DNA from: Escherichia phage vB_EcoP_PHB20
Length of the DNA stretch: 38,552 bases
Sequence record: MN481366.1
Strand: one strand, 5' to 3'
The position numbers and the translations under genes are program-made. Below the pieces are notes generated by a model. The model was not told the origin of the DNA and made no database searches. It saw nothing but the letters and a program-made list of their open reading frames with translations. Below, in pieces: positions 3,796 through 36,306 of this stretch. Position 1 is the first letter of the stretch. The number at the start of each line of letters is the position of its first letter.

Positions 3796-6447
3796 ATGAA
3801 CACAATTAACATCGCTAAGAACGACTTCTCTGACATCGAACTGGCTGCTATCCCGTTCAACACTCTGGCTGACCATTACGGTGAGCGTTTGGCTCGCGAA
3901 CAGTTGGCCCTTGAGCATGAGTCTTACGAGATGGGTGAAGCACGCTTCTGCAAGATGTTTGAGCGTCAACTTAAAGCTGGTGAGGTTGCGGATAACGCTG
4001 CCGCTAAGCCTCTCATTACTACCCTGCTCCCTAAGATGATTGCGCGCATCAACGACTGGTTTGAGGAAGTGAAAGCTAAGCGCGGCAAGCGCCCGACAGC
4101 CTTCCAGTTCCTGCAAGAAATCAAGCCGGAAGCTGTAGCGTACATCACCATTAAGACCACTCTGGCTTGCCTAACTAGCGCAGACAATACAACCGTTCAG
4201 GCTGTAGCAAGCGCAATCGGTCGGGCCATTGAGGATGAGTCGCGCTTCGGTCGCATCCGTGACCTTGAAGCTAAGCACTTCAAGAAAAACGTTGAGGAAC
4301 AACTAAACAAGCGCGTAGGGCACGTCTACAAGAAAGCATTCATGCAGGTTGTCGAAGCTGACATGCTCTCTAAGGGTCTGATGGGTGGCGAGGCGTGGTC
4401 TTCGTGGCATAAGGAAGACTCAATTCACGTTGGGGTGCGCTGCATTGAGATGCTCATTGAGTCAACCGGAATGGTTAGCTTACATCGTCAAAACGCTGGC
4501 GTAGTGGGGCAAGACTCTGAGACTATCGAACTCGCGCCGGAATACGCTGAGGCTATCGCTACTCGCGCTGGGGCACTAGCGGGCATTTCCCCAATGTTCC
4601 AGCCTTGCGTAGTCCCTCCTAAGCCTTGGACTGGCATTACTGGTGGTGGCTATTGGGCTAACGGTCGCCGTCCTCTGGCGCTGGTACGCACTCATTTTAA
4701 GAAAGCACTGATGCGCTACGAAGATGTTTACATGCCTGAGGTGTACAAGGCGATTAACATTGCGCAAAACACCGCATGGAAAATCAACAAGAAAGTCCTA
4801 GCGGTCGCCAACGTAATCACCAAGTGGAAGCACTGCCCTGTAGAGGACATCCCAGCGATTGAGCGTGAAGAACTCCCGATGAAACCGGAAGACATCGACA
4901 CGAATCCTGAGGCACTCACCGCGTGGAAACGTGCTGCTGCCGCTGTGTACCGTAAGGACAAGGCTCGCAAGTCTCGCCGTATCAGCCTTGAGTTCATGCT
5001 TGAGCAAGCCAACAAGTTCGCTAACCATGAGGCCATCTGGTTCCCTTACAACATGGACTGGCGCGGTCGTGTTTACGCGGTGTCAATGTTCAACCCGCAA
5101 GGTAACGACATGACCAAGGGACTGCTGACGCTGGCTAAAGGTAAACCAATCGGTAAAGAGGGTTACTACTGGCTGAAAATCCACGGTGCAAACTGTGCGG
5201 GTGTCGATAAGGTTCCGTTCCCGGAGCGCATCAAGTTCATTGAGGACAACCACGAGAACATCATGGCTTGCGCTAAGTCTCCACTGGAGAACACTTGGTG
5301 GGCTGAGCAGGATTCACCATTCTGCTTCCTCGCGTTCTGCTTTGAGTACGCTGGGGTACAGCACCACGGCCTGAGCTACAACTGCTCGCTGCCTCTGGCG
5401 TTCGATGGGTCTTGCTCTGGTATTCAACACTTCTCCGCGATGCTCCGCGATGAGGTGGGTGGTCTTGCTGTTAACCTACTGCCTAGTGAAACCGTTCAGG
5501 ACATCTACGGGATTGTTGCCAAGAAAGTCAACGTGATTCTGCAAGAAGACGTAATCAACGGGACCGACAACGAAGTAGTTACCGTGACTGATGAGAACAC
5601 TGGCGAAATCTCTGAGAAAGTTAAGCTGGGTACTAAGGCACTGGCTGGTCAATGGCTGGCTTACGGTGTAACTCGTAGCGTGACTAAGCGTTCAGTCATG
5701 ACGCTGGCTTACGGGTCCAAAGAGTTCGGCTTCCGTCAACAAGTGCTGGAAGATACCATTCAGCCAGCTATCGATTCCGGCAAGGGTCTGATGTTTACTC
5801 AGCCGAATCAGGCTGCTGGGTACATGGCTAAGCTGATTTGGGAAGCTGTAAGTGTGACTGTGGTGGCTGCGGTTGAAGCGATGAACTGGCTTAAGTCTGC
5901 TGCTAAACTTCTGGCTGCTGAGGTCAAAGATAAGAAGACTGGAGAGATTCTTCGCAAGCGTTGCGCTGTGCATTGGGTGACTCCTGATGGCTTCCCTGTG
6001 TGGCAGGAATACAAGAAGCCCATCCAGACTCGCTTGAACCTGATTTTCCTCGGTCAGTTCCGTCTACAGCCTACCATTAACACAAACAAGGATAGTGAGA
6101 TTGACACACACAAACAGGAGTCCGGTATCGCTCCTAACTTTGTGCATAGCCAAGATGGTAGCCACCTGCGTAAGACTGTAGCGTGGGCGCATGAGAAGTA
6201 CGGAATCGAATCGTTTGCACTGATTCACGACTCCTTCGGGACCATTCCGGCTGACGCTGCCAACCTGTTCAAAGCTGTACGTGAAACTATGGTTGACACC
6301 TATGAGTCTTGCGATGTACTGGCTGACTTCTACGACCAGTTCGCTGACCAGTTGCACGAGTCTCAATTGGACAAAATGCCAGCACTTCCGGCTAAAGGTA
6401 ACTTGAATCTCCAAGACATCCTTAAGTCAGACTTCGCGTTTGCGTAA
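3796..6447 (+). CDS. 1: T7-type single-subunit DNA-dependent RNA polymerase (gp1)
   Basis: 883-aa ORF MNTINIAKNDFSDIELAAIPFNTLADHYGERLAREQ...; same length as and near-identical to T7 RNAP as recalled; consistent with T7-specificity promoters throughout. Confidence 0.98.
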   Translation: MNTINIAKNDFSDIELAAIPFNTLADHYGERLAREQLALEHESYEMGEARFCKMFERQLKAGEVADNAAAKPLITTLLPKMIARINDWFEEVKAKRGKRPTAFQFLQEIKPEAVAYITIKTTLACLTSADNTTVQAVASAIGRAIEDESRFGRIRDLEAKHFKKNVEEQLNKRVGHVYKKAFMQVVEADMLSKGLMGGEAWSSWHKEDSIHVGVRCIEMLIESTGMVSLHRQNAGVVGQDSETIELAPEYAEAIATRAGALAGISPMFQPCVVPPKPWTGITGGGYWANGRRPLALVRTHFKKALMRYEDVYMPEVYKAINIAQNTAWKINKKVLAVANVITKWKHCPVEDIPAIEREELPMKPEDIDTNPEALTAWKRAAAAVYRKDKARKSRRISLEFMLEQANKFANHEAIWFPYNMDWRGRVYAVSMFNPQGNDMTKGLLTLAKGKPIGKEGYYWLKIHGANCAGVDKVPFPERIKFIEDNHENIMACAKSPLENTWWAEQDSPFCFLAFCFEYAGVQHHGLSYNCSLPLAFDGSCSGIQHFSAMLRDEVGGLAVNLLPSETVQDIYGIVAKKVNVILQEDVINGTDNEVVTVTDENTGEISEKVKLGTKALAGQWLAYGVTRSVTKRSVMTLAYGSKEFGFRQQVLEDTIQPAIDSGKGLMFTQPNQAAGYMAKLIWEAVSVTVVAAVEAMNWLKSAAKLLAAEVKDKKTGEILRKRCAVHWVTPDGFPVWQEYKKPIQTRLNLIFLGQFRLQPTINTNKDSEIDTHKQESGIAPNFVHSQDGSHLRKTVAWAHEKYGIESFALIHDSFGTIPADAANLFKAVRETMVDTYESCDVLADFYDQFADQLHESQLDKMPALPAKGNLNLQDILKSDFAFA

Positions 6448-6455
6448 CGTCACAT

Positions 6456-6478
6456 TAATACGACTCACTATAGAGGGA
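6456..6478 (+). promoter_or_regulatory. T7 RNAP promoter phi1.1A, copy 1
   Basis: taatacgactcactatagaggga; +1 G at 6473. Confidence 0.85.
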
Positions 6479-6529
6479 CAAACTCAAGGTCACTTAATGA
6501 GTGGCCTTTATTATTGACCTTCTTCCGGT

Positions 6530-6552
6530 TAATACGACTCACTATAGAGGGA
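6530..6552 (+). promoter_or_regulatory. T7 RNAP promoter phi1.1A, copy 2 (duplicated)
   Basis: Identical 23-mer; +1 G at 6547. Confidence 0.85.
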
Positions 6553-6603
6553 CAAACTCAAGGTCACTTAATGAGTGGCCTTTATGATTGACCTTCTTCC
6601 GGT

Positions 6604-6626
6604 TAATACGACTCACTATAGGAGAA
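6604..6626 (+). promoter_or_regulatory. T7 RNAP promoter phi1.1B
   Basis: taatacgactcactataggagaa; +1 G at 6621. Confidence 0.85.
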
Positions 6627-6700
6627 CCTTAAGGTTTAACTTTAAGACCCTTAAGTGTTAATTAAAGATTTAAATTAAAGAATTACTAAGAGAGGACTTT
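6627..6700 (+). other. AT-rich region corresponding to the T7 primary origin of replication
   Basis: ccttaaggtttaactttaagacccttaagtgttaattaaagatttaaattaaagaattactaag directly downstream of the phi1.1 promoters, where T7 oriP maps. Confidence 0.5.
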
Positions 6701-6704
6701 AAGT

Positions 6705-6833
6705 ATGCGTAACTTCGAAAAGATGACCAAACGTTCTAACCGTAACGCTCATGACTTCGAGGCAACTAAGGGTCGCAAGTTTAATAAACCATTACGAACC
6801 CGTGCACATAAACGCTGCTGGGAGGGTCAATAA
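6705..6833 (+). CDS. 1.1: gp1.1 (42 aa, basic)
   Basis: ATG 6705 after gagagg SD; MRNFEKMTKRSNRNAHDFEATKGRKFNKPLRTRAHKRCWEGQ. Confidence 0.8.
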   Translation: MRNFEKMTKRSNRNAHDFEATKGRKFNKPLRTRAHKRCWEGQ

Positions 6834-6834
6834 G

Positions 6835-7086
6835 ATGGGACGTTTATATAGTGGGAACTTGAATGACTTCAAGGCTGTTTGCAACAGGCTCTACCAGTTA
6901 GACTTTGCTGTTATAGTTGTTGAGCAGGAAGGTTCACCAAACATAAAGGCGACCATGTACCTTCGGATTGAAGACCGTACTGGTCGCATAGTTGTTCAGG
7001 AGGAGATTCACCACTGCGACGAAGACGTTCTGTACAATATGGGAACCGCTTGGCTGAACCGTATGTACGACCAGTTGAAGCACTAG
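6835..7086 (+). CDS. 1.2: gp1.2, inhibitor of host dGTP triphosphohydrolase
   Basis: Internal ATG of track ORF 6751..7086 with gggagggtcaataag upstream; MGRLYSGNL... 83 aa. Confidence 0.85.
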   Translation: MGRLYSGNLNDFKAVCNRLYQLDFAVIVVEQEGSPNIKATMYLRIEDRTGRIVVQEEIHHCDEDVLYNMGTAWLNRMYDQLKH

Positions 7087-7089
7087 AAG

Positions 7090-7112
7090 TAATACGACTC
7101 AGTATAGGGACA
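7090..7112 (+). promoter_or_regulatory. T7 RNAP promoter phi1.3
   Basis: taatacgactcagtatagggaca (characteristic G at -5); +1 G at 7107. Confidence 0.8.
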
Positions 7113-7113
7113 A

Positions 7114-7148
7114 TGCTTAAGGTCGCTAATTGAGTGGCCTTAGTCATT
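7114..7148 (+). promoter_or_regulatory. RNase III processing hairpin R1.3
   Basis: gcttaaggtcgctaattgagtggccttagtc. Confidence 0.55.
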
Positions 7149-7170
7149 TAACCGATAGGAGATAAACATT

Positions 7171-8193
7171 ATGATGAACATTAAGACCAACCCATTCAAA
7201 GCTGTGTCTTTCGTAGAGTCTGCCATTAAGAAAGCTCTGGATAACGCTGGGTATCTTATCGCTGACATCAAGTACGATGGTGTACGTGGGAACATCTGCG
7301 TAGACAATACCGCTAACAGTTGCTGGCTCTCTCGTGTATCTAAAACGATTCCGGCACTGGAGCACCTAAACGGATTCGATGCACGCTGGAAGCGCCTTCT
7401 GAATGATGACCGTTGCTTCTACAAAGATGGCTTTATGCTTGATGGAGAACTCATGGTCAAGGGAGTAGACTTCAACACTGGGTCTGGCCTACTGCGCACC
7501 AAATGGACTGACACGAAGAACCAAGAGTTCCACGAAGAGTTATTCGTTGAACCAGTCCGTAAGAAAGACAAGGTTCCCTTTAAGCTGCACACTGGACACC
7601 TTCACGTCAAACTGTACGCTATCATCCCTCTGCACATCGTGGAGTCTGGAGAAGACTGCGATGTCATGATGTTACTCATGCAGGAACACGTTAAGAACAT
7701 GCTGCCTCTGCTACAGGAATACTTCCCTGAAATCGAATGGCAAGCGGCTGAGTCTTACGAGGTCTACGACATGGTTGAACTACAGCAACTGTATGAGAAG
7801 AAGCGTGAAGAAGGCCATGAGGGTCTCATTGTGAAAGACCCGATGTGTATCTATAAGCGCGGTAAGAAGTCGGGCTGGTGGAAACTCAAGCCAGAGAACG
7901 AGGCTGACGGTATCATTCAGGGTCTTGTGTGGGGAACCGAAGGTTTAGCGAATGAGGGTAAAGTAATCGGATTTGAGATGCTTCTTGAGAGTGGTCGTGT
8001 AGTCAACGCCACAAACATCTCTCGCACCTTAATGGATGAATTTACTAACACGGTTAGCATCGAAGGCGAAACCTACTACAGCGGACACGCTTGTCAGATT
8101 GCGTACATGGAGGAAACACCCGATGGCTCGCTGCGTCACCCATCATTCGTAATGTTCCGTGGCACCGAGGATAACCCTCAAGAGAAAATGTAA
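7171..8193 (+). CDS. 1.3: ATP-dependent DNA ligase (gp1.3)
   Basis: 340 aa; adenylation motif KYDGVRG; N-terminus as T7 ligase; shorter than the 359-aa T7 protein. Confidence 0.95.
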   Translation: MMNIKTNPFKAVSFVESAIKKALDNAGYLIADIKYDGVRGNICVDNTANSCWLSRVSKTIPALEHLNGFDARWKRLLNDDRCFYKDGFMLDGELMVKGVDFNTGSGLLRTKWTDTKNQEFHEELFVEPVRKKDKVPFKLHTGHLHVKLYAIIPLHIVESGEDCDVMMLLMQEHVKNMLPLLQEYFPEIEWQAAESYEVYDMVELQQLYEKKREEGHEGLIVKDPMCIYKRGKKSGWWKLKPENEADGIIQGLVWGTEGLANEGKVIGFEMLLESGRVVNATNISRTLMDEFTNTVSIEGETYYSGHACQIAYMEETPDGSLRHPSFVMFRGTEDNPQEKM

Positions 8194-8195
8194 AC

Positions 8196-8228
8196 ACACT
8201 GGCTCACCTTAGGGTGGGCCTTTCTGCG
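8196..8228 (+). terminator. Early (host RNAP) rho-independent terminator TE
   Basis: GC-rich hairpin ggctcaccttagggtgggcc followed by tttctgcgttt, immediately after the ligase gene. Confidence 0.75.
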
Positions 8229-8230
8229 TT

Positions 8231-8253
8231 TAATACGACTCACTAAAGGAGGT
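8231..8253 (+). promoter_or_regulatory. T7 RNAP promoter phi1.5
   Basis: taatacgactcactaaaggaggt; +1 G at 8248. Confidence 0.8.
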
Positions 8254-8260
8254 ACACACC

Positions 8261-8350
8261 ATGCTGTACTTAATGCCATTACTCATCGTAATCATAGGGT
8301 ACCTTGCGCTCTACTGTAGCGATGATGATATGCCAGATGGTCACGCTTAA
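8261..8350 (+). CDS. 1.5: gp1.5 (29 aa)
   Basis: ATG 8261 after aaggaggt; MLYLMPLLIVIIGYLALYCSDDDMPDGHA; same size and position as T7 1.5. Confidence 0.6.
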   Translation: MLYLMPLLIVIIGYLALYCSDDDMPDGHA

Positions 8351-8370
8351 TACGACTCACTAAAGGAGAC
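8348..8370 (+). promoter_or_regulatory. T7 RNAP promoter phi1.6
   Basis: taatacgactcactaaaggagac; +1 G at 8365. Confidence 0.8.
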
Positions 8371-8375
8371 ACTAT

Positions 8376-8635
8376 ATGTTTCGACTTCATTACAACAAAA
8401 GCATTAAGAATTTCACGGTTCGCCATGCTGACCGTTCAATCGTATGTGTGAGCGAGCGCCGAGCTAAGTTGCCTCTTATTGGTGACACAGTTCCTTTGGC
8501 ACCGAACGTCCACATCATTATCACCCGTGGTGACTTCGAGAAAGCAATAGACAAGAAACGTCCGGTTCTTAGTGTGGCAGTGACCCGCTTCCCGTTCGTC
8601 CGCCTGTTACTCAAACGAATCAAGGAGGTGTTCTG

Positions 8636-8636
<1 letters not shown>
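8376..8636 (+). CDS. 1.6: gp1.6 (86 aa)
   Basis: Track ORF directly after phi1.6; size and position match T7 1.6. Confidence 0.8.
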
Positions 8637-9255
<619 letters not shown>

Positions 9256-9258
<3 letters not shown>

Positions 9259-9278
9259 TACGACTCACTATTAGGGAA
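9256..9278 (+). promoter_or_regulatory. T7 RNAP promoter phi2.5 (A-initiating)
   Basis: taatacgactcactattagggaaga; the T7 phi2.5 variant with +1 A. Confidence 0.8.
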
Positions 9279-9323
9279 GACTCCCTCTGAGAAACTAAAC
9301 GAAACCTAAAGGAGATTAACATT

Positions 9324-10022
9324 ATGGCTAAGAAGATTTTCACCTCTGCGCTGGGTATTGCTGAACCTTACGCTTACATCTCTAAGCCGGACTACGGCAA
9401 CGAAGAGCGTGGCTTTGGGAACCCTCGCGGTGTCTACAAAGTTGACCTGACTATTCCCAACAAAGACCCGCGCTGCCAGCGTATGGTCGATGAAATCGTG
9501 AAGTGTCACGAAGAGGCTTATGCTGCTGCCGTTGAGGAATACGAAGCGAATCCACCTGCGGTAGCTCGTGGTAAGAAACCACTGAAACCGTATGAAGGTG
9601 ACATGCCGTTCTTCGATAACGGTGACGGCACTACTACCTTTAAGTTCAAATGCTACGCGTCTTTCCAAGACAAGAAGACCAAAGAGACCAAGCACATCAA
9701 TCTGGTTGTGGTTGACTCCAAAGGTAAGAAGATTGAAGACGTTCCGATTATCGGTGGCGGCTCTAAGCTGAAAGTCAAATACTCTCTGGTTCCGTACAAG
9801 TGGAACACCGCTGTAGGTGCGAGCGTTAAGCTGCAACTGGAATCCGTAATGCTGGTCGAACTGGCTACCTTTGGTGGAGGTGAAGACGATTGGGCTGACG
9901 AAGTTGAAGAGAACGGCTATGTTGCCTCTGGTTCTGCCAAAGCGAGCAAACCACGCGACGAAGAAAGCTGGGACGAAGACGACGAAGAGTCCTACGAAGA
10001 AGACGAAGACGGAGACTTCTAA
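9324..10022 (+). CDS. 2.5: Single-stranded DNA-binding protein (gp2.5)
   Basis: 232 aa with acidic C-terminal tail DEESWDEDDEESYEEDEDGDF; near-identical to T7 gp2.5 as recalled. Confidence 0.95.
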   Translation: MAKKIFTSALGIAEPYAYISKPDYGNEERGFGNPRGVYKVDLTIPNKDPRCQRMVDEIVKCHEEAYAAAVEEYEANPPAVARGKKPLKPYEGDMPFFDNGDGTTTFKFKCYASFQDKKTKETKHINLVVVDSKGKKIEDVPIIGGGSKLKVKYSLVPYKWNTAVGASVKLQLESVMLVELATFGGGEDDWADEVEENGYVASGSAKASKPRDEESWDEDDEESYEEDEDGDF

Positions 10023-10478
10023 GTGGCTGGCGCATACGCTGCGCGTGGTATCCGAAAGGTCGGGACATTCCGTTCCGGCCTAGAAGATAAGGTCTCTAAG
10101 CAGCTAGAGGGTAAGGGCATTAAGTTCGACTATGAACTCTGGAAAATCCCTTACGTTGTCCCTGCGAGCAACCATGTGTATACTCCAGACTTCCTGCTGC
10201 CTAACGGAATCTTCATTGAAACCAAAGGTTTATGGGAGAGTGACGACCGAAAGAAACACTTATTGATTCGCGAACAGTTTCCCGAACTGGACATCCGTCT
10301 GGTGTTCTCAAGCTCGCGCACAAAGCTGTACAAAGGGTCTCCGACCAGTTACGGCGAGTGGTGTGAGAAGCACGGTATCCTGTTTGCTGACAAATTAATT
10401 CCTGTGGAATGGCTCAAAGAACCCAAAAAGGAGGTGCCATTTGACAAGCTGAAACAATCGAAGGGAGGTAAGAAATAA
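10023..10478 (+). CDS. 3: Endonuclease I, Holliday junction resolvase (gp3)
   Basis: 151 aa starting at GTG directly after the 2.5 stop; ...PASNHVYTPDFLLPNGIFIETKGLWESDDRKKHLLIREQ... matches T7 gp3. Confidence 0.9.
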   Translation: MAGAYAARGIRKVGTFRSGLEDKVSKQLEGKGIKFDYELWKIPYVVPASNHVYTPDFLLPNGIFIETKGLWESDDRKKHLLIREQFPELDIRLVFSSSRTKLYKGSPTSYGEWCEKHGILFADKLIPVEWLKEPKKEVPFDKLKQSKGGKK

Positions 10479-10933
10479 TGTCTCGTGTACAGTTCAAACA
10501 ACGTGAATCCACTGACGCAATCTTTGTCCACTGCTCGGCTACCAAGCCAAGTCAGAACGTGGGTGTCCGTGAGATTCGCCAGTGGCATAAAGAGCAAGGT
10601 TGGCTCGATGTTGGGTATCACTTTATCATCAAGCGTGATGGCACTGTAGAGGCGGGTCGAGACGAGATGGCTGTAGGTTCTCACGCTAAGGGCCACAACC
10701 ACAACTCTATTGGTGTCTGCCTTGTGGGTGGTATCGACGATAAAGGTAAGTTCGAAGCTAACTTTACGCCAGCCCAAATGCAATCCCTTCGCTCACTGCT
10801 TGTCACACTTCTTGCTAAGTACGAAGGTGCTGTTCTTCGCGCACATCACGATGTGGCACCAAAGGCTTGCCCATCGTTCGACCTTAAGCGTTGGTGGGAG
10901 AAGAACGAACTGGTCACTTCTGACCGTGGCTAA
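10478..10933 (+). CDS. 3.5: Lysozyme / N-acetylmuramoyl-L-alanine amidase, T7 RNAP inhibitor (gp3.5)
   Basis: 151 aa MSRVQFKQRESTDAIFVHCSATKPSQNVGVREIRQWHKEQGWLDVGYHFII...; near-identical to T7 lysozyme as recalled. Confidence 0.95.
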   Translation: MSRVQFKQRESTDAIFVHCSATKPSQNVGVREIRQWHKEQGWLDVGYHFIIKRDGTVEAGRDEMAVGSHAKGHNHNSIGVCLVGGIDDKGKFEANFTPAQMQSLRSLLVTLLAKYEGAVLRAHHDVAPKACPSFDLKRWWEKNELVTSDRG

Positions 10934-10985: not shown

Positions 10986-12735
<1,750 letters not shown>

Positions 12736-16393: not shown

Positions 16394-16551
16394 TGGTTCG
16401 TGACACTGTAACAATTCCTCGTGATGCGTGGAACGATATGCAGGGCTACATCGACTCTCTGGAACGTGAGAACGATAGCCTTAAGAATCAACTTATGGAA
16501 GCTGACGAATACGTAGCTGAGCTAGAGGAGAAACTTAATGGCACTTCTTGA
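16393..16551 (+). CDS. 5.9: gp5.9 (52 aa; RecBCD inhibitor in T7)
   Basis: ATG 16393 overlapping the 5.7 stop; MVRDTVTIPRDAWNDMQGYIDSLERENDSLKNQLMEADEYVAELEEKLNGTS. Confidence 0.8.
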   Translation: MVRDTVTIPRDAWNDMQGYIDSLERENDSLKNQLMEADEYVAELEEKLNGTS

Positions 16552-17440
16552 CCTTAAACAATTCTACGAGTTACGCGAAGGTTGTGACGACAAGGGTATC
16601 CTAGTGATGGATGGTGACTGGCTGGTCTTCCAAGCGATGAGTGCTGCTGAGTTTGATGCCTCATGGGAGGAAGAGATTTGGCACCGCTGCTGTGACCACG
16701 CTAAGGCCCGTCAGATTCTTGAGGATTCCATCAAGTCCTATGAGACCCGTAAGAAGGCTTGGGTAGGTGCTCCGATTGTCCTTGCGTTCACCGATAGCGT
16801 TAACTGGCGCAAAGAACTGGTTGACCCGAACTACAAGGCTAACCGTAAGGCAACGAAGAAACCTGTAGGTTACTTTGAGTTCCTTGATGCACTATTTGAG
16901 CGAGAAGAGTTCTACTGCATCCGTGAGCCTATGCTTGAGGGTGATGACGTTATGGGAGTTATTGCTTCCAATCCGTCTGCATTCGGTGCTCGTAAGGCTG
17001 TAATCATCTCGTGCGATAAGGACTTTAAGACCATCCCTAACTGCGACTTCCTCTGGTGTACCACTGGTAACATCCTGACTCAGACCGAAGAGTCCGCTGA
17101 CTGGTGGCACCTCTTCCAGACCATCAAGGGTGACATTACCGATGGTTACTCAGGGATTGCCGGATGGGGCGATACAGCCGAGGACTTCTTGAATAACCCG
17201 TTCATAACCGAGCCTAAAACGTCTGTGCTTAAGTCTGGAAAGAACAAAGGCCAAGAGGTCACCAAGTGGGTTAAACGTGCCCCTGAGCCTCATGAGACGC
17301 TTTGGGACTGCATTAAGTCCATCGGTGCGAAGGCTGGTATGACCGAAGAGGATGTTATCAAGCAGGCACAGATGGCTCGCATCCTACGGTTCAATGAGTA
17401 CAACTTTATTGACAAGGAGATTTACCTGTGGAGGCCGTAG
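16538..17440 (+). CDS. 6: 5'-3' exonuclease (gp6)
   Basis: 300 aa MALLDLKQFYELREGCDDKGILVMDGDWLVFQ...; near-identical to T7 gp6 as recalled. Confidence 0.95.
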   Translation: MALLDLKQFYELREGCDDKGILVMDGDWLVFQAMSAAEFDASWEEEIWHRCCDHAKARQILEDSIKSYETRKKAWVGAPIVLAFTDSVNWRKELVDPNYKANRKATKKPVGYFEFLDALFEREEFYCIREPMLEGDDVMGVIASNPSAFGARKAVIISCDKDFKTIPNCDFLWCTTGNILTQTEESADWWHLFQTIKGDITDGYSGIAGWGDTAEDFLNNPFITEPKTSVLKSGKNKGQEVTKWVKRAPEPHETLWDCIKSIGAKAGMTEEDVIKQAQMARILRFNEYNFIDKEIYLWRP

Positions 17441-18893: not shown

Positions 18894-20504
18894 ATGGCTG
18901 AGAAGCGTACAGGTCTAGCCGAGGAAGGTGCAAAGTCCGTTTATGACCGATTGAAGAACGACCGCGCTCCTTATGAGACTCGTGCTCAAAACTGCGCTCA
19001 GTACACCATTCCGTCCCTCTTCCCTAAGGAATCCGATAACTCATCCACAGACTACACGACTCCGTGGCAAGCTGTGGGTGCTCGCGGTCTCAATAACTTG
19101 GCCTCTAAGCTCATGTTGGCGCTCTTCCCGATGCAAACGTGGATGAAGCTGACCATCTCTGAGTATGAGGCAAAACAGTTACTGAATGACCCCGATGGAC
19201 TCGCTAAGGTTGATGAGGGTCTATCGATGGTAGAGCGTATCATCATGAACTACATTGAGTCTAACAGTTACCGAGTAACTCTCTTTGAGGCTCTCAAGCA
19301 GTTAGTCGTAGCTGGTAACGTTCTTCTGTATCTACCGGAACCAGAAGGGTCAAACTACAATCCCATGAAGCTGTACCGATTGTCTTCTTATGTGGTCCAA
19401 CGAGACGCATTCGGCAACGTTCTGCAAATGGTGACTCGTGACCAGATAGCTTTTGGTGCTCTCCCTGAGGACATCCGTAAGGCTGTAGAAGGTCAAGGTG
19501 GTGAGAAGAAACCTGATGAGACCATCGACGTGTACACTCACATCTATCTGGATGAGGACAAAGGTGAATACCTCCGGTACGAAGAGGTCGAGGGCATGGA
19601 GGTCCAAGGCTCAGATGGGTCTTACCCTAAAGAGGCTTGCCCATACATCCCGATTCGCATGGTTCGACTGGATGGTGAATCCTATGGTCGTTCGTACATT
19701 GAGGAATACTTAGGCGACTTACGGTCACTTGAGAATCTCCAAGAGGCTATCGTTAAGATGTCAATGATTAGCTCTAAGGTTATCGGCTTAGTGAATCCTG
19801 CTGGTATCACCCAGCCACGCCGACTGACCAAAGCCCAGACTGGTGACTTTGTTACTGGTCGCCCAGAAGACATCTCGTTCCTCCAACTGGAGAAGCAAGC
19901 AGACTTTACGGTAGCCAAGGCTGTCAGTGACGCTATTGAGGCTCGACTTTCGTTTGCCTTTATGTTGAACTCTGCGGTTCAGCGCACAGGTGAACGTGTG
20001 ACCGCCGAAGAGATTCGGTATGTAGCTTCTGAACTTGAAGATACTTTAGGTGGTGTCTACTCAATCCTTTCTCAAGAATTACAATTGCCTCTGGTGCGAG
20101 TGCTCTTGAAGCAACTGCAAGCCACGCAACAGATTCCTGAGTTACCTAAGGAAGCCGTAGAGCCAACCATTAGTACAGGTCTGGAAGCAATTGGTCGAGG
20201 GCAAGACCTTGATAAGCTGGAACGGTGTGTCACTGCGTGGGCTGCGCTGGCTCCCATGCGCGATGACCCTGACATCAACCTTGCAATTATTAAGTTGCGC
20301 ATTGCGAACGCTATCGGTATTGACACTTCTGGTATCCTTCTTACCGAAGAACAGAAGCAACAGAAGATGGCTCAACAGGCTATGCAAATGGGTATGGATA
20401 ACGGTGCTGCTGCGCTTGGTCAAGATATGGCTGCACAGGCTACAGCTTCTCCTGAGGCTATGGCTGCTGCCGCTGATTCCGTAGGTTTACAGACGGGCAT
20501 TTAA
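18894..20504 (+). CDS. 8: Portal / head-tail connector protein (gp8)
   Basis: 536 aa, same length as T7 gp8; aggaggtgacacATG SD. Confidence 0.98.
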   Translation: MAEKRTGLAEEGAKSVYDRLKNDRAPYETRAQNCAQYTIPSLFPKESDNSSTDYTTPWQAVGARGLNNLASKLMLALFPMQTWMKLTISEYEAKQLLNDPDGLAKVDEGLSMVERIIMNYIESNSYRVTLFEALKQLVVAGNVLLYLPEPEGSNYNPMKLYRLSSYVVQRDAFGNVLQMVTRDQIAFGALPEDIRKAVEGQGGEKKPDETIDVYTHIYLDEDKGEYLRYEEVEGMEVQGSDGSYPKEACPYIPIRMVRLDGESYGRSYIEEYLGDLRSLENLQEAIVKMSMISSKVIGLVNPAGITQPRRLTKAQTGDFVTGRPEDISFLQLEKQADFTVAKAVSDAIEARLSFAFMLNSAVQRTGERVTAEEIRYVASELEDTLGGVYSILSQELQLPLVRVLLKQLQATQQIPELPKEAVEPTISTGLEAIGRGQDLDKLERCVTAWAALAPMRDDPDINLAIIKLRIANAIGIDTSGILLTEEQKQQKMAQQAMQMGMDNGAAALGQDMAAQATASPEAMAAAADSVGLQTGI

Positions 20505-33272: not shown

Positions 33273-35237
33273 ATGGCTAACGTAATTAAAACCGTTTTGA
33301 CTTACCAGTTAGATGGCTCCACTCGTGATTTTAATATCCCGTTTGAGTATCTAGCCCGTAAGTTCGTAGTGGTAACTCTTATTGGTGTAGACCGTAAGGT
33401 CCTTACGCTTAATACAGACTATCGCTTTGCTACACGTACTACCATCTCACTGACTAAGGCTTGGGGTCCATCCGATGGCTACACGACCATTGTGTTACGC
33501 CGAGTAACCTCCACGACCGACCGCTTGGTTGACTTTACGGACGGCTCAATCCTCCGTGCGTATGACCTTAACGTTGCTCAGATTCAAACGATGCACGTAG
33601 CGGAGGAGGCGCGCGACCTGACTGCTGATACAATCGGTGTCAATAATGACGGTCACTTGGATGCCCGTGGTCGTAAGATTGTTAACTTGGCGTATGCCAC
33701 AGGTGACTATGATGCCGTCCCTTTAAAGCAGGTTAAAGAGCGTGAAACCTCTGCGTGGAATGCCGCAACAAAAGCTAACGAACACGCTGACCGTTCTAAT
33801 AGGGAAGCAAACCGTTCCCGTGATGAGGCCAATCGCGCTCAACGTGAAGCTGACCGCTCAACGCAACAGGCAGATGTCTCTAAGCAACAGGCAGTTGAGT
33901 CCAAGAAGCAAGCTGACCGCTCAGACGCTGAGGCTGACAGAGCTAAAGGTTATGTTGATAGCATGATCGCAAGTGTCGCTGAGGCCGAGAAGCAAGCTGA
34001 CCGTGCCGACTCTGAGGCAAATCGTGCCCGTGATGAGGCCGATCGTGCTGCCGGAGAAGTGACTAAAGCTGCTGCTGAGGTTGCCAAGGCTGCTGCACAT
34101 GTTGAGACCGCTAAGGGACATGCTGATAGGGCTAACACTGAGGCAAACCGCTCCAAAGGTGAGGCTGACCGTGCTAAGTCTGAGGCAGACAAGCTGGGGA
34201 ATATGAACAGCTTAGCTGGGGCTATTGACAGGGTTGAGGATCTTGATGTTTACTTCAAGCGCAAGGTGTCAGGTAAGGACTTTACGTTGCGGAATGATGC
34301 AAAGGGCGCTGATACTAAACCAGTTGAATTAGTATGGACCCAGTGGCGTGGAGAGGGAAGCAAGGAGACCGTATGGGAACAGTGGATTCAGGCTGGTCCA
34401 AAACGCATGGACTACTATACGTTCATCAATACAGACCCTGCCACATGGCCTGACGGACGATCTAATAGTAAAGGAAAACACACATTTTTTGGAGATGTTT
34501 TATTGGCTGGTGGGAACGTGGAAATGCACGGCAACCTTAAGGTTAATGCAGTCGAGTCTAAAAATACCGTTTCCCTTACAAATGAGGGTGCCAGCTTTAG
34601 GGCAAAAACACAAGGCGGCGGATGGAGCCAGTGGACAGGAAGTCTATCTCCAGACGTGCAGCACGATATTGCAGGGCAGGGGGATATAAACTATCTCCTT
34701 GAGCGAGCGACGATTTGGGGTAAAGAGCACCTGTATGCTAAGTGCTTATACAACAATGGAACAGGCGTTAACTTCTTTATCAGACATTATCTCCGTGGGA
34801 CTCACTTCGACTACAGGAGCGATGGTACTCTTCTCAGCTCGACTGGTTGGTATATTCCACCAGATGGCAACCTGTACATCAAAAAGTACAACGAGTATAT
34901 TGATGCGTGGGTCAACAAACGCCTTGATGAACACGCCTATAACAAAAGTACCGCCGATGGTCTCTATATCCGCAAGAATGCTGGGTGGAGTGAAGTGTGG
35001 AAAGGAAGAGTTGGTGGTGGTGTATCCGTATCTCTATCTCAAGATGTTCGTTGGAGAACCATCTGGATTCAGACCAACGATCACTGGAACCCGATAGAGA
35101 TTGGGGACGATGGTGCCTACTTTCTTTCCTCTATGGGTGGGTGGATTACATTCACTATCTCCAACGGCGGGAGAACCTTCAAGAATGACAGAGATGAGAA
35201 ATCTGTACCAACTAGCATTCTGGTGCGTAACAACTAA
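33273..35237 (+). CDS. 17: Tail fiber protein gp17, long mosaic form (654 aa)
   Basis: N-terminal ~150 aa MANVIKTVLTYQLDGSTRDFNIPFEYLARKFVVVTLIGVDRK... is T7-like; then a repetitive EANRxRDEADRA coiled-coil; C-terminal ~300 aa differs from T7 except the last ~60 aa. Confidence 0.95.
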   Translation: MANVIKTVLTYQLDGSTRDFNIPFEYLARKFVVVTLIGVDRKVLTLNTDYRFATRTTISLTKAWGPSDGYTTIVLRRVTSTTDRLVDFTDGSILRAYDLNVAQIQTMHVAEEARDLTADTIGVNNDGHLDARGRKIVNLAYATGDYDAVPLKQVKERETSAWNAATKANEHADRSNREANRSRDEANRAQREADRSTQQADVSKQQAVESKKQADRSDAEADRAKGYVDSMIASVAEAEKQADRADSEANRARDEADRAAGEVTKAAAEVAKAAAHVETAKGHADRANTEANRSKGEADRAKSEADKLGNMNSLAGAIDRVEDLDVYFKRKVSGKDFTLRNDAKGADTKPVELVWTQWRGEGSKETVWEQWIQAGPKRMDYYTFINTDPATWPDGRSNSKGKHTFFGDVLLAGGNVEMHGNLKVNAVESKNTVSLTNEGASFRAKTQGGGWSQWTGSLSPDVQHDIAGQGDINYLLERATIWGKEHLYAKCLYNNGTGVNFFIRHYLRGTHFDYRSDGTLLSSTGWYIPPDGNLYIKKYNEYIDAWVNKRLDEHAYNKSTADGLYIRKNAGWSEVWKGRVGGGVSVSLSQDVRWRTIWIQTNDHWNPIEIGDDGAYFLSSMGGWITFTISNGGRTFKNDRDEKSVPTSILVRNN

Positions 35238-35284
35238 GGGATGACCAATAGTCCACGGATGGACTCTTTGAGGGAGGACGCTAC

Positions 35285-35488
35285 ATGTTGTCTTTAGATT
35301 TTAATAATGAGTTAGTCAAGGCCGCACCTATTGTTGGCACTGGTGTGGCTGATGGCGCTGCGAGGCTTTTCTTCGGTCTGAGTCTTAATGAGTGGTTCTA
35401 CGTTGCCGCTATGGCCTACACAGTGGTTCAGATTGGTGCCAAGGTAGTCGATAAGATGATTGACTGGAAGAAAGCCAATAAGGAGTAA
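35285..35488 (+). CDS. 17.5: Holin (gp17.5)
   Basis: 67 aa with one hydrophobic segment and charged C-terminus; near-identical to T7 gp17.5 as recalled. Confidence 0.9.
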   Translation: MLSLDFNNELVKAAPIVGTGVADGAARLFFGLSLNEWFYVAAMAYTVVQIGAKVVDKMIDWKKANKE

Positions 35489-35491
35489 TAT

Positions 35492-35761
35492 ATGGAAAAA
35501 GATAAGAGCCTCATTACGTTCTTAGAGATGTTGGACACTGCGATGGCTCAGCGTATGCTTGCGGACCTTTCGGACCCTGAGCGGCGCTCTCCACAACTCT
35601 ATAACGCCATTAACAAACTGTTAGACCGTCACAAGTTCCAGATTGGTAAGTTGCAGCCGGATGTTCACATCTTGGGTGGCCTTGCTGGTGCTCTTGAAGA
35701 GTACAAAGAGAAAGTCGGTGAGAACGGTCTTACGGATGACGATATTTATACTTTACAGTGA
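35492..35761 (+). CDS. 18: Terminase small subunit (gp18)
   Basis: 89 aa MEKDKSLITFLEMLDTAMAQRMLADLSDPERRSPQLYNAINKLLDRHKFQIGKL...; T7 gp18-like. Confidence 0.9.
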   Translation: MEKDKSLITFLEMLDTAMAQRMLADLSDPERRSPQLYNAINKLLDRHKFQIGKLQPDVHILGGLAGALEEYKEKVGENGLTDDDIYTLQ

Positions 35762-35796
35762 TATACTCAAGGTCTCCTACGGGTGGCCTTTATGGA
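35762..35796 (+). promoter_or_regulatory. RNase III processing hairpin R18.5
   Basis: tatactcaaggtctcctacgggtggcctttatgg. Confidence 0.5.
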
Positions 35797-35853
35797 TGTC
35801 ATTGTCTACACGAGATGCTCCTACGTGAAATCTGAAAGTTAACGGGAGGCATT

Positions 35854-36297
35854 ATGCTGGAATTTTTACGTAAGCTGGTCCCTTGGGTTCTCGCTGGGAT
35901 GCTGCTCGGATGTGGATGGCAACTTGGGGCTGACTCAATGGACGCCAAGTGGAAACAGGAGGTACAGAATGAGTACGTTAAGAGAGTTGAGGCTACGGCG
36001 AGCACTCAAAGAGCAGTCAGTGAAATATCGGCTAAGTATCAAGAAGACCTTGCCGCGTTGGAAGGGAGCACTGATAGGATTATTTCTGATTTGCGTAGCG
36101 ACAATAAGCGGTTGCGCGTCAGAATCAAGACTACCGGAACCTCCGATGGTAAGTGTGGATTCGAGCCTGATGGTCGAGCCGAACTTGACGACCGAGATGC
36201 TAAACGTATTCTCGCAGTGACCCAGAAGGGTGACGCATGGATTCGTGCGTTACAGGATACTATTCGTGAACTGCAACGTAAGCAGGAAACCAAGTAA
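35854..36297 (+). CDS. 18.5: i-spanin, Rz-like (gp18.5)
   Basis: 147 aa with N-terminal TM segment LVPWVLAGMLLGCGW and coiled-coil periplasmic part; T7 gp18.5-like. Confidence 0.9.
   Translation: MLEFLRKLVPWVLAGMLLGCGWQLGADSMDAKWKQEVQNEYVKRVEATASTQRAVSEISAKYQEDLAALEGSTDRIISDLRSDNKRLRVRIKTTGTSDGKCGFEPDGRAELDDRDAKRILAVTQKGDAWIRALQDTIRELQRKQETK
35969..36220 (+). CDS. 18.7: o-spanin, Rz1-like lipoprotein (gp18.7), embedded in the +1 frame of 18.5
   Basis: Internal ATG of track ORF 35912..36220; 83 aa with lipobox TISGC and proline-rich mature part; fully embedded in 18.5. Confidence 0.8.
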   Translation: MSTLRELRLRRALKEQSVKYRLSIKKTLPRWKGALIGLFLICVATISGCASESRLPEPPMVSVDSSLMVEPNLTTEMLNVFSQ

Positions 36298-36306
36298 GGA
36301 GGTAAT

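Follow-up and report, generated by a model that had tools for sequence, protein, structure and literature searches.

The early terminator TE directly abuts promoter phi1.5 in a T7-like Escherichia phage without gene 1.4

In the genome of Escherichia phage vB_EcoP_PHB20 (sequence record MN481366.1; the whole analysed stretch of 38,552 nt is called the window here), the early terminator TE runs directly into the phage promoter phi1.5, which is in turn followed by gene 1.5. No equivalent of gene 1.4, which in the annotated T7 genome (NC_001604) lies between the early terminator and phi1.5, is present. An earlier note on this DNA had proposed this arrangement as well as the contrast to T7, and its description of both genomes was borne out when the coordinates were read from the sequence and aligned to T7. 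We consider it very probable that the site represents the ordinary boundary between host-polymerase-dependent early and phage-polymerase-dependent middle transcription of a T7-group phage, from which gene 1.4, an accessory cassette, is absent. To judge from the genomes compared below, the TE/phi1.5 junction without gene 1.4 is the usual layout of most T7 relatives, with T7 itself being the exception. The arrangement as such is already known on the basis of GenBank annotations.

The last gene upstream of TE is gene 1.3 (7171-8193, plus strand), an open reading frame (ORF) for an ATP-dependent DNA ligase of 340 amino acids that is named DNA ligase in the record NC_048082. With 1023 nt it is as long as the ligase genes of the phages 13a and phiA1122, whereas the T7 ligase comprises 359 amino acids. 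The gene ends with a TAA stop codon at 8191-8193, and in the alignment TE is located 8 nt past this codon, just as the T7 TE is found immediately after gene 1.3. Hereby, the hairpin (8201-8220, plus strand) is built from the stem strands GGCTCACC (8201-8208) and GGTGGGCC (8213-8220), which enclose the loop TTAG (8209-8212), yielding a G+C-rich stem of 8 bp with 6 G-C pairs. The adjoining tail TTTCTGCGTT (8221-8230, plus strand), assigned by alignment to T7, runs into phi1.5. The extent of 8196-8228 given for TE in the earlier note is thus essentially right, although its left boundary lies 5 nt ahead of the stem and its right boundary 2 nt short of the tail end. The termination point of T7, where TE is annotated at position 7588, aligns to C8227, four bases ahead of position -17 of phi1.5.

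The hairpin folds with a predicted energy of -15.6 kcal/mol (z = -3.2), and none of 200 shuffled sequences was equally stable. Compared to the T7 terminator, stem and tail are identical, and the differences are restricted to one loop base (TTAG instead of TTCG) and one upstream base. A generic scan for sigma-70 promoters and terminators between positions 6000 and 10000, which demanded 5 T in 8 bases, did not call TE. This can be attributed to the atypical, interrupted tail UUUCUGCGUU, which contains 4 T in 8 bases and is a poor U tract, but has the same letters as the tail of the annotated T7 TE; the missing call is not evidence against TE. As far as sequence can tell, the identification of TE is one by homology to the annotated T7 terminator, and no variation of the TE stem was seen among the 22 related loci that were compared. 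We also considered whether the TTAG loop might represent a weakened TE. This idea was discarded, since the predicted stability is unchanged by the exchange of TTCG for TTAG (-15.4 vs -15.6 kcal/mol).

The class II promoter phi1.5 (TAATACGACTCACTAAAGGAGGT, 8231-8253, plus strand) begins without any spacer after the TE tail (8230 to 8231), exactly at the position proposed earlier. It is identical to T7 phi1.5 (T7 feature at 7778) in 23 of 23 positions, and by analogy with T7 its span was assigned to -17 to +6 with G8248 as +1. The Shine-Dalgarno motif GGAGG (8248-8252) precedes the start codon of gene 1.5, ATG at 8261, by 13 nt, and promoter and leader match those of T7 base for base through this ATG. 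Searching with the 23-mer class III consensus and up to 3 mismatches misses both phi1.5 and phi1.6, which deviate at 4 positions each; an 18-mer core with W at position -2 recovered both. With at most one mismatch allowed, the window contains 14 copies of the promoter core 18-mer TAATACGACTCACTAWAG, all of them on the plus strand, compared to 0 copies expected. Gene 1.5 (8261-8350, plus strand) is an ORF of 29 amino acids (MLYLMPLLIVIIGYLALYCSDDDMPDGHA), which matches PHROG 12128 (E = 2.6e-19) and is a hypothetical protein in NC_048082. Its TAA stop codon (8348-8350) at the same time forms nucleotides 1-3 of phi1.6 (8348-8370, plus strand), the class II promoter that comes next. This promoter-core match is the counterpart of T7 phi1.6 and precedes the ORF of gene 1.6 (8376-8636, plus strand; 86 amino acids; PHROG 1777, E = 3e-41). 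The cognate single-subunit polymerase is present as well: gene 1 (3796-6447), an ORF of 883 amino acids annotated as RNA polymerase, sits in a block that is 91% identical at the DNA level to the T7 gene 1 region.

A 74-bp tandem repeat extends over positions 6455-6621 of the window (2.3 copies, 98% match), and three phi1.1-type promoters are found at 6456, 6530 and 6604, while T7 possesses two (phi1.1A and phi1.1B). The first two repeat copies are of the phi1.1A type (TATAGAGGGA), each with a hairpin AAGGTCACTTAATGAGTGGCCTT. This hairpin is presumably the R1.1 RNase III site, in which case that site would be duplicated too. Gene 1.7 (8636-8950) encodes 104 amino acids compared to 196 in T7. 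Its residues 2-18 match residues 20-36 of T7 gp1.7 and its remainder matches from about residue 96, so that, relative to T7, the protein lacks 18 residues at its N-terminus and about 60 residues in an internal block. The product spans just the C-terminal half of the PHROG profile "nucleotide kinase", and the RefSeq name is still nucleotide kinase. At the position of T7 gene 1.8, an ORF of 46 codons (8904-9044) shows weak similarity to gp1.8 (37% over 27 amino acids, pairwise E = 4e-5); it carries no annotation in the IME390 RefSeq record.

In T7, gene 1.3 is followed by TE (7588), gene 1.4 (7608-7763), phi1.5 (7778) and gene 1.5, and T7 and the window share genes 1.5 and 1.6 as well as phi1.6 in the same order. 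Alignment of the T7 interval from gene 1.3 to gene 1.5, as suggested in the earlier note, reveals 169 extra bases in T7 at precisely this point. The match runs to ...GGGCCTTTCTGCGTT and resumes from TAATACGACTCAC..., with the additional T7 bases falling between ...CTGCGTT and TAATACGAC...; they hold the 51 codons of gene 1.4 along with its own Shine-Dalgarno sequence. Neither of the two observations that had been named as speaking against the proposal, namely a conserved small ORF with a start signal in the 30-nt interval or a T7 genome devoid of gene 1.4 at this position, was made. No plus-strand ORF of at least 20 amino acids is found between 8194 and 8260, and a tblastn search of the whole window for a homologue of T7 gp1.4 gave a best E value of 2.2.

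A 33-codon ORF with an ATG start does exist on the minus strand (8178-8279), extending across TE and phi1.5, and one may ask whether this ORF or a structured RNA constitutes a hidden element that takes the place of gene 1.4. However, the ORF is antisense to sequence that is already explained by a terminator and a promoter, all 14 promoter matches are located on the plus strand, and the annotated genes of the region that we examined are all oriented rightward. Moreover, a scan of the whole window against Rfam returned no family, and nothing is annotated at this place in IME390, 13a or phiA1122. We therefore regard such a replacement as extremely improbable.

Between 7100 and 9300, the window is 100% identical to Enterobacteria phage vB_EcoP_IME390 (MH779619/NC_048082, genus Teseptimavirus). 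The exact match extends over 5.2 kb (5600-10800), with IME390 coordinates corresponding to window coordinates minus 855; in total, the IME390 GenBank record (38,396 bp) falls 156 bases short of the window. The coordinates of TE, phi1.5 and phi1.6 presented here can be supplied to this record, which contains no regulatory annotation. In the case of 13a (NC_011045/EU734174), the depositors annotated TE (6304-6323), phi1.5 (6334-6356) and gene 1.5 with nothing in between. Its TE/phi1.5 junction is base for base that of the window and gene 1.4 is absent; differences are seen in the loop (TTCG), in gene 1.5, which is one codon longer, and in gene 1.7, which measures 540 nt vs 315 nt here. Yersinia phage phiA1122 (NC_004777) likewise lacks gene 1.4 and shares the junction, the TTAG loop and the gap of 67 nt between the ligase stop codon and gene 1.5. 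What sets it apart is its host and the presence of an HNH endonuclease in the 1.7 region; its record contains annotations of neither promoters nor terminators. Phage T3 (NC_047864), which belongs to the genus Teetrevirus, possesses a homologous TE hairpin after the ligase gene, behind which come, almost immediately, a phage promoter and then a small ORF, again without gene 1.4. In T3, stem end and promoter are 16 nt apart, compared to 10 nt in the window, with the promoter beginning 6 nt past the equivalent tail; this promoter has a T3-specific sequence (ATTAACCCTCACTAAC), and loop/stem (TTCAC) exceed those of the window in length.

A scan of IMG/VR for the exact junction yielded 7 contigs in which TE and phi1.5 are directly joined, one of them a metagenome contig and the others putatively derived from HZ2R8, phiA1122, HZP2, N30, CICC 80001 and C5. 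Three contigs contain an insert of about 169 bp, i.e. T7, EG1 and one metagenome contig. Across the related loci compared, the distance between stem end and promoter is exactly 10 nt in all 11 loci without insert and 179 nt in nine phages bearing gene 1.4 (178 nt in ESh1), the nine phages being represented by 11 loci because T7 was counted three times. These data also bear on the concern that the 169-bp segment collapsed between similar sequences during sequencing or assembly and that the real phage has gene 1.4. Nothing in its favour was found beyond a general ground, namely that repeated promoters can confuse assemblers. Yet the same junction, GCGTT joined to TAATACGAC with exactly 10 nt from stem to promoter, came out of independent sequencing of 11 loci, among them those of the Sanger-era genomes phiA1122 and 13a. 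Together with the identity of the window to the IME390 GenBank record over 5.2 kb, this renders the probability of an artefact practically negligible.

The phages 13a, phiA1122, CICC 80001, N30, C5, HZ2R8, HZP2 and T3 all lack gene 1.4, as does the phage studied here. In an evenly spread sample of junction-matching records, the insert is missing from about 23 natural phages and present in about 3. The difference to T7 that had been pointed out in the earlier note is real, but taking T7 as the norm misleads, given that the junction devoid of gene 1.4 is the commoner one among natural relatives. It is T7 that is atypical in carrying the gene, and awareness of this helps to avoid flagging T7-like genomes without it as anomalies.

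Gene 1.4 DNA was detected in 55 of 50,697 phage records. The majority of these records (41 of 55) represent T7 or laboratory derivatives of T7; the remaining 14 records, corresponding to 12 phages, are natural relatives. Where present, gene 1.4 is an intact ORF for a strongly hydrophobic protein of 51 amino acids that is always found at the same site, with length and frame being kept at a nucleotide divergence of up to about 29% (71% identity). The family corresponds to PHROG 17655, whose function is unknown. Taken at the level of sequence distribution, gene 1.4 is a patchily distributed accessory cassette of 169 bp, occurring in T7 and a minority of its relatives only. Engineered T7 clones without gene 1.4 have been deposited as complete mutant genomes, and the gene thus appears to be dispensable in the laboratory. 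In one of these deposits (MZ375239, T7_40L; locus L022, 401-498), the deletion also replaces positions -17 to -14 of phi1.5 (CACTT joined to TTACGACTCAC). Therefore, phi1.5 is probably damaged in this series of gene 1.4-deleted clones. A limited literature search for T7 gene 1.4 or gp1.4, which included the accessions of the engineered clones, retrieved no article.

Concerning the direction of change, the comparison suggests that the absence of gene 1.4 is the older state, because the outgroup T3 also lacks the gene. The opposite course would be a secondary loss. Here, an ancestor would have been organized as TE, a promoter with gene 1.4, phi1.5 with gene 1.5, and phi1.6 with gene 1.6; homologous recombination between the directly repeated promoters would have excised gene 1.4 in the lineage of the window, so that TE came to lie against a single promoter, while in T7 the gene would have been retained, with its promoter losing 13 nt from the upstream side. 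Several features of the T7-type locus are in line with this scheme. The TAA at the start of phi1.5 doubles as the stop codon of gene 1.4, and the stop codon of gene 1.5 has the same relation to phi1.6. The leader of gene 1.4 (AAGGAGACACTATATGTTT) is identical in 19 of 19 positions to that of phi1.6/gene 1.6 and is preceded by TATA, which resembles positions -4 to +4 of a T7 promoter. This leader identity suggests that gene 1.4 once had a promoter of its own. The identical stretch, which can be seen in T7 (locus L004) at 7594-7612 vs 7892-7910, includes the first two codons of gene 1.4, and the same identity is found between YpYeO9 (locus L017) and positions 8362-8380 of the window. In addition, YpYeO9 and AV103, which are among the closest relatives in this part of the genome, carry a diverged gene 1.4, and the TE loop alleles TTCG, TTAG and GAAA are all found with and without the gene, which makes the polymorphism mosaic. 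Against a secondary loss, T3, as a member of another genus, has no gene 1.4 and its TE lies next to its own promoter. Furthermore, neither the phage genome collection nor IMG/VR yielded a phage with a complete promoter before gene 1.4. A chimeric query composed of TE, promoter and gene 1.4 matched 55 records, with the matches listed spanning 88-90 nt and not 102 nt, and a pattern scan of IMG/VR for a full promoter before gene 1.4 gave 0 matches, so that an ancestral promoter of this kind is a speculative idea. Taken together, we view secondary loss as possible, albeit unlikely.

The loop of TE itself occurs in at least four alleles (TTCG, TTAG, GAAA and TTCT) across the loci compared (L001-L022). 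Three of them, TTCG, TTAG and GAAA, each occur with and without gene 1.4, which is just 18 nt away. This means that recombination or recurrent events must have taken place within a very short distance. Whichever the direction of change, the presence or absence of gene 1.4 is, in terms of the loci compared, a polymorphism that is mosaic within the genus.

Returning to the preferred reading, an ordinary early/middle boundary without gene 1.4, the following course of transcription can be envisaged by analogy with T7, from which termination by the host polymerase, read-through by the phage polymerase and the transcription start are inferred. The host RNA polymerase would transcribe the early genes through the ligase gene 1.3 and meet the intrinsic terminator TE, with release occurring at about position 8227, after the hairpin (8201-8220) and the interrupted U tract. 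The promoter phi1.5, four bases past the release point, would serve the phage-encoded T7-type RNA polymerase exclusively. Its transcripts, which encode gene 1.5, should start at G8248 and hence open with GGAGG. Phage polymerase molecules coming from the upstream class II promoters (the phi1.1 copies and phi1.3) would read through TE, as in T7, and initiation would also take place at phi1.6. Without gene 1.4, gene 1.5 is the first gene downstream of TE.

The immediate neighborhood of terminator and promoter could in principle have a function of its own. Hereby, a host polymerase that pauses or terminates at about 8227 would cover phi1.5 (8231-8253) and could in this way couple early shut-off to the firing of phi1.5. 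As a separate element of the same proposal, genes 1.4, 1.5 and 1.6 may constitute promoter-bounded tandem modules, whose gain and loss would result from promoter-to-promoter recombination. The observation behind the coupling is the zero spacer, with 10 nt from hairpin to promoter, which is kept in 11 loci. If true, early shut-off would be tied to the first strictly phage-polymerase-dependent promoter; we assign this proposal a low probability.

Gene 1.4 is one among several T7 accessory segments that, by alignment, are missing here, the others including the regions of genes 2.8, 5.3 and 7.7 as well as part of gene 1.7. In detail, the window has no blastn match to approximately T7 positions 1769-2022 (0.6 region), 8171-8543 (inside gene 1.7), 9860-10278 (gene 2.8), 11213-11742 (3.8 region), 16468-16834 (gene 5.3), 19843-20240 (gene 7.7) and 35075-36298 (distal tail fibre). 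Several T7 genes in the unmatched regions are annotated as endonucleases or HNH endonucleases. Finally, the window is circularly permuted with respect to T7: the right end of T7 maps to positions 142-702 and its left end to positions 555-812, which places the terminal-repeat (concatemer) junction at about 555-702.
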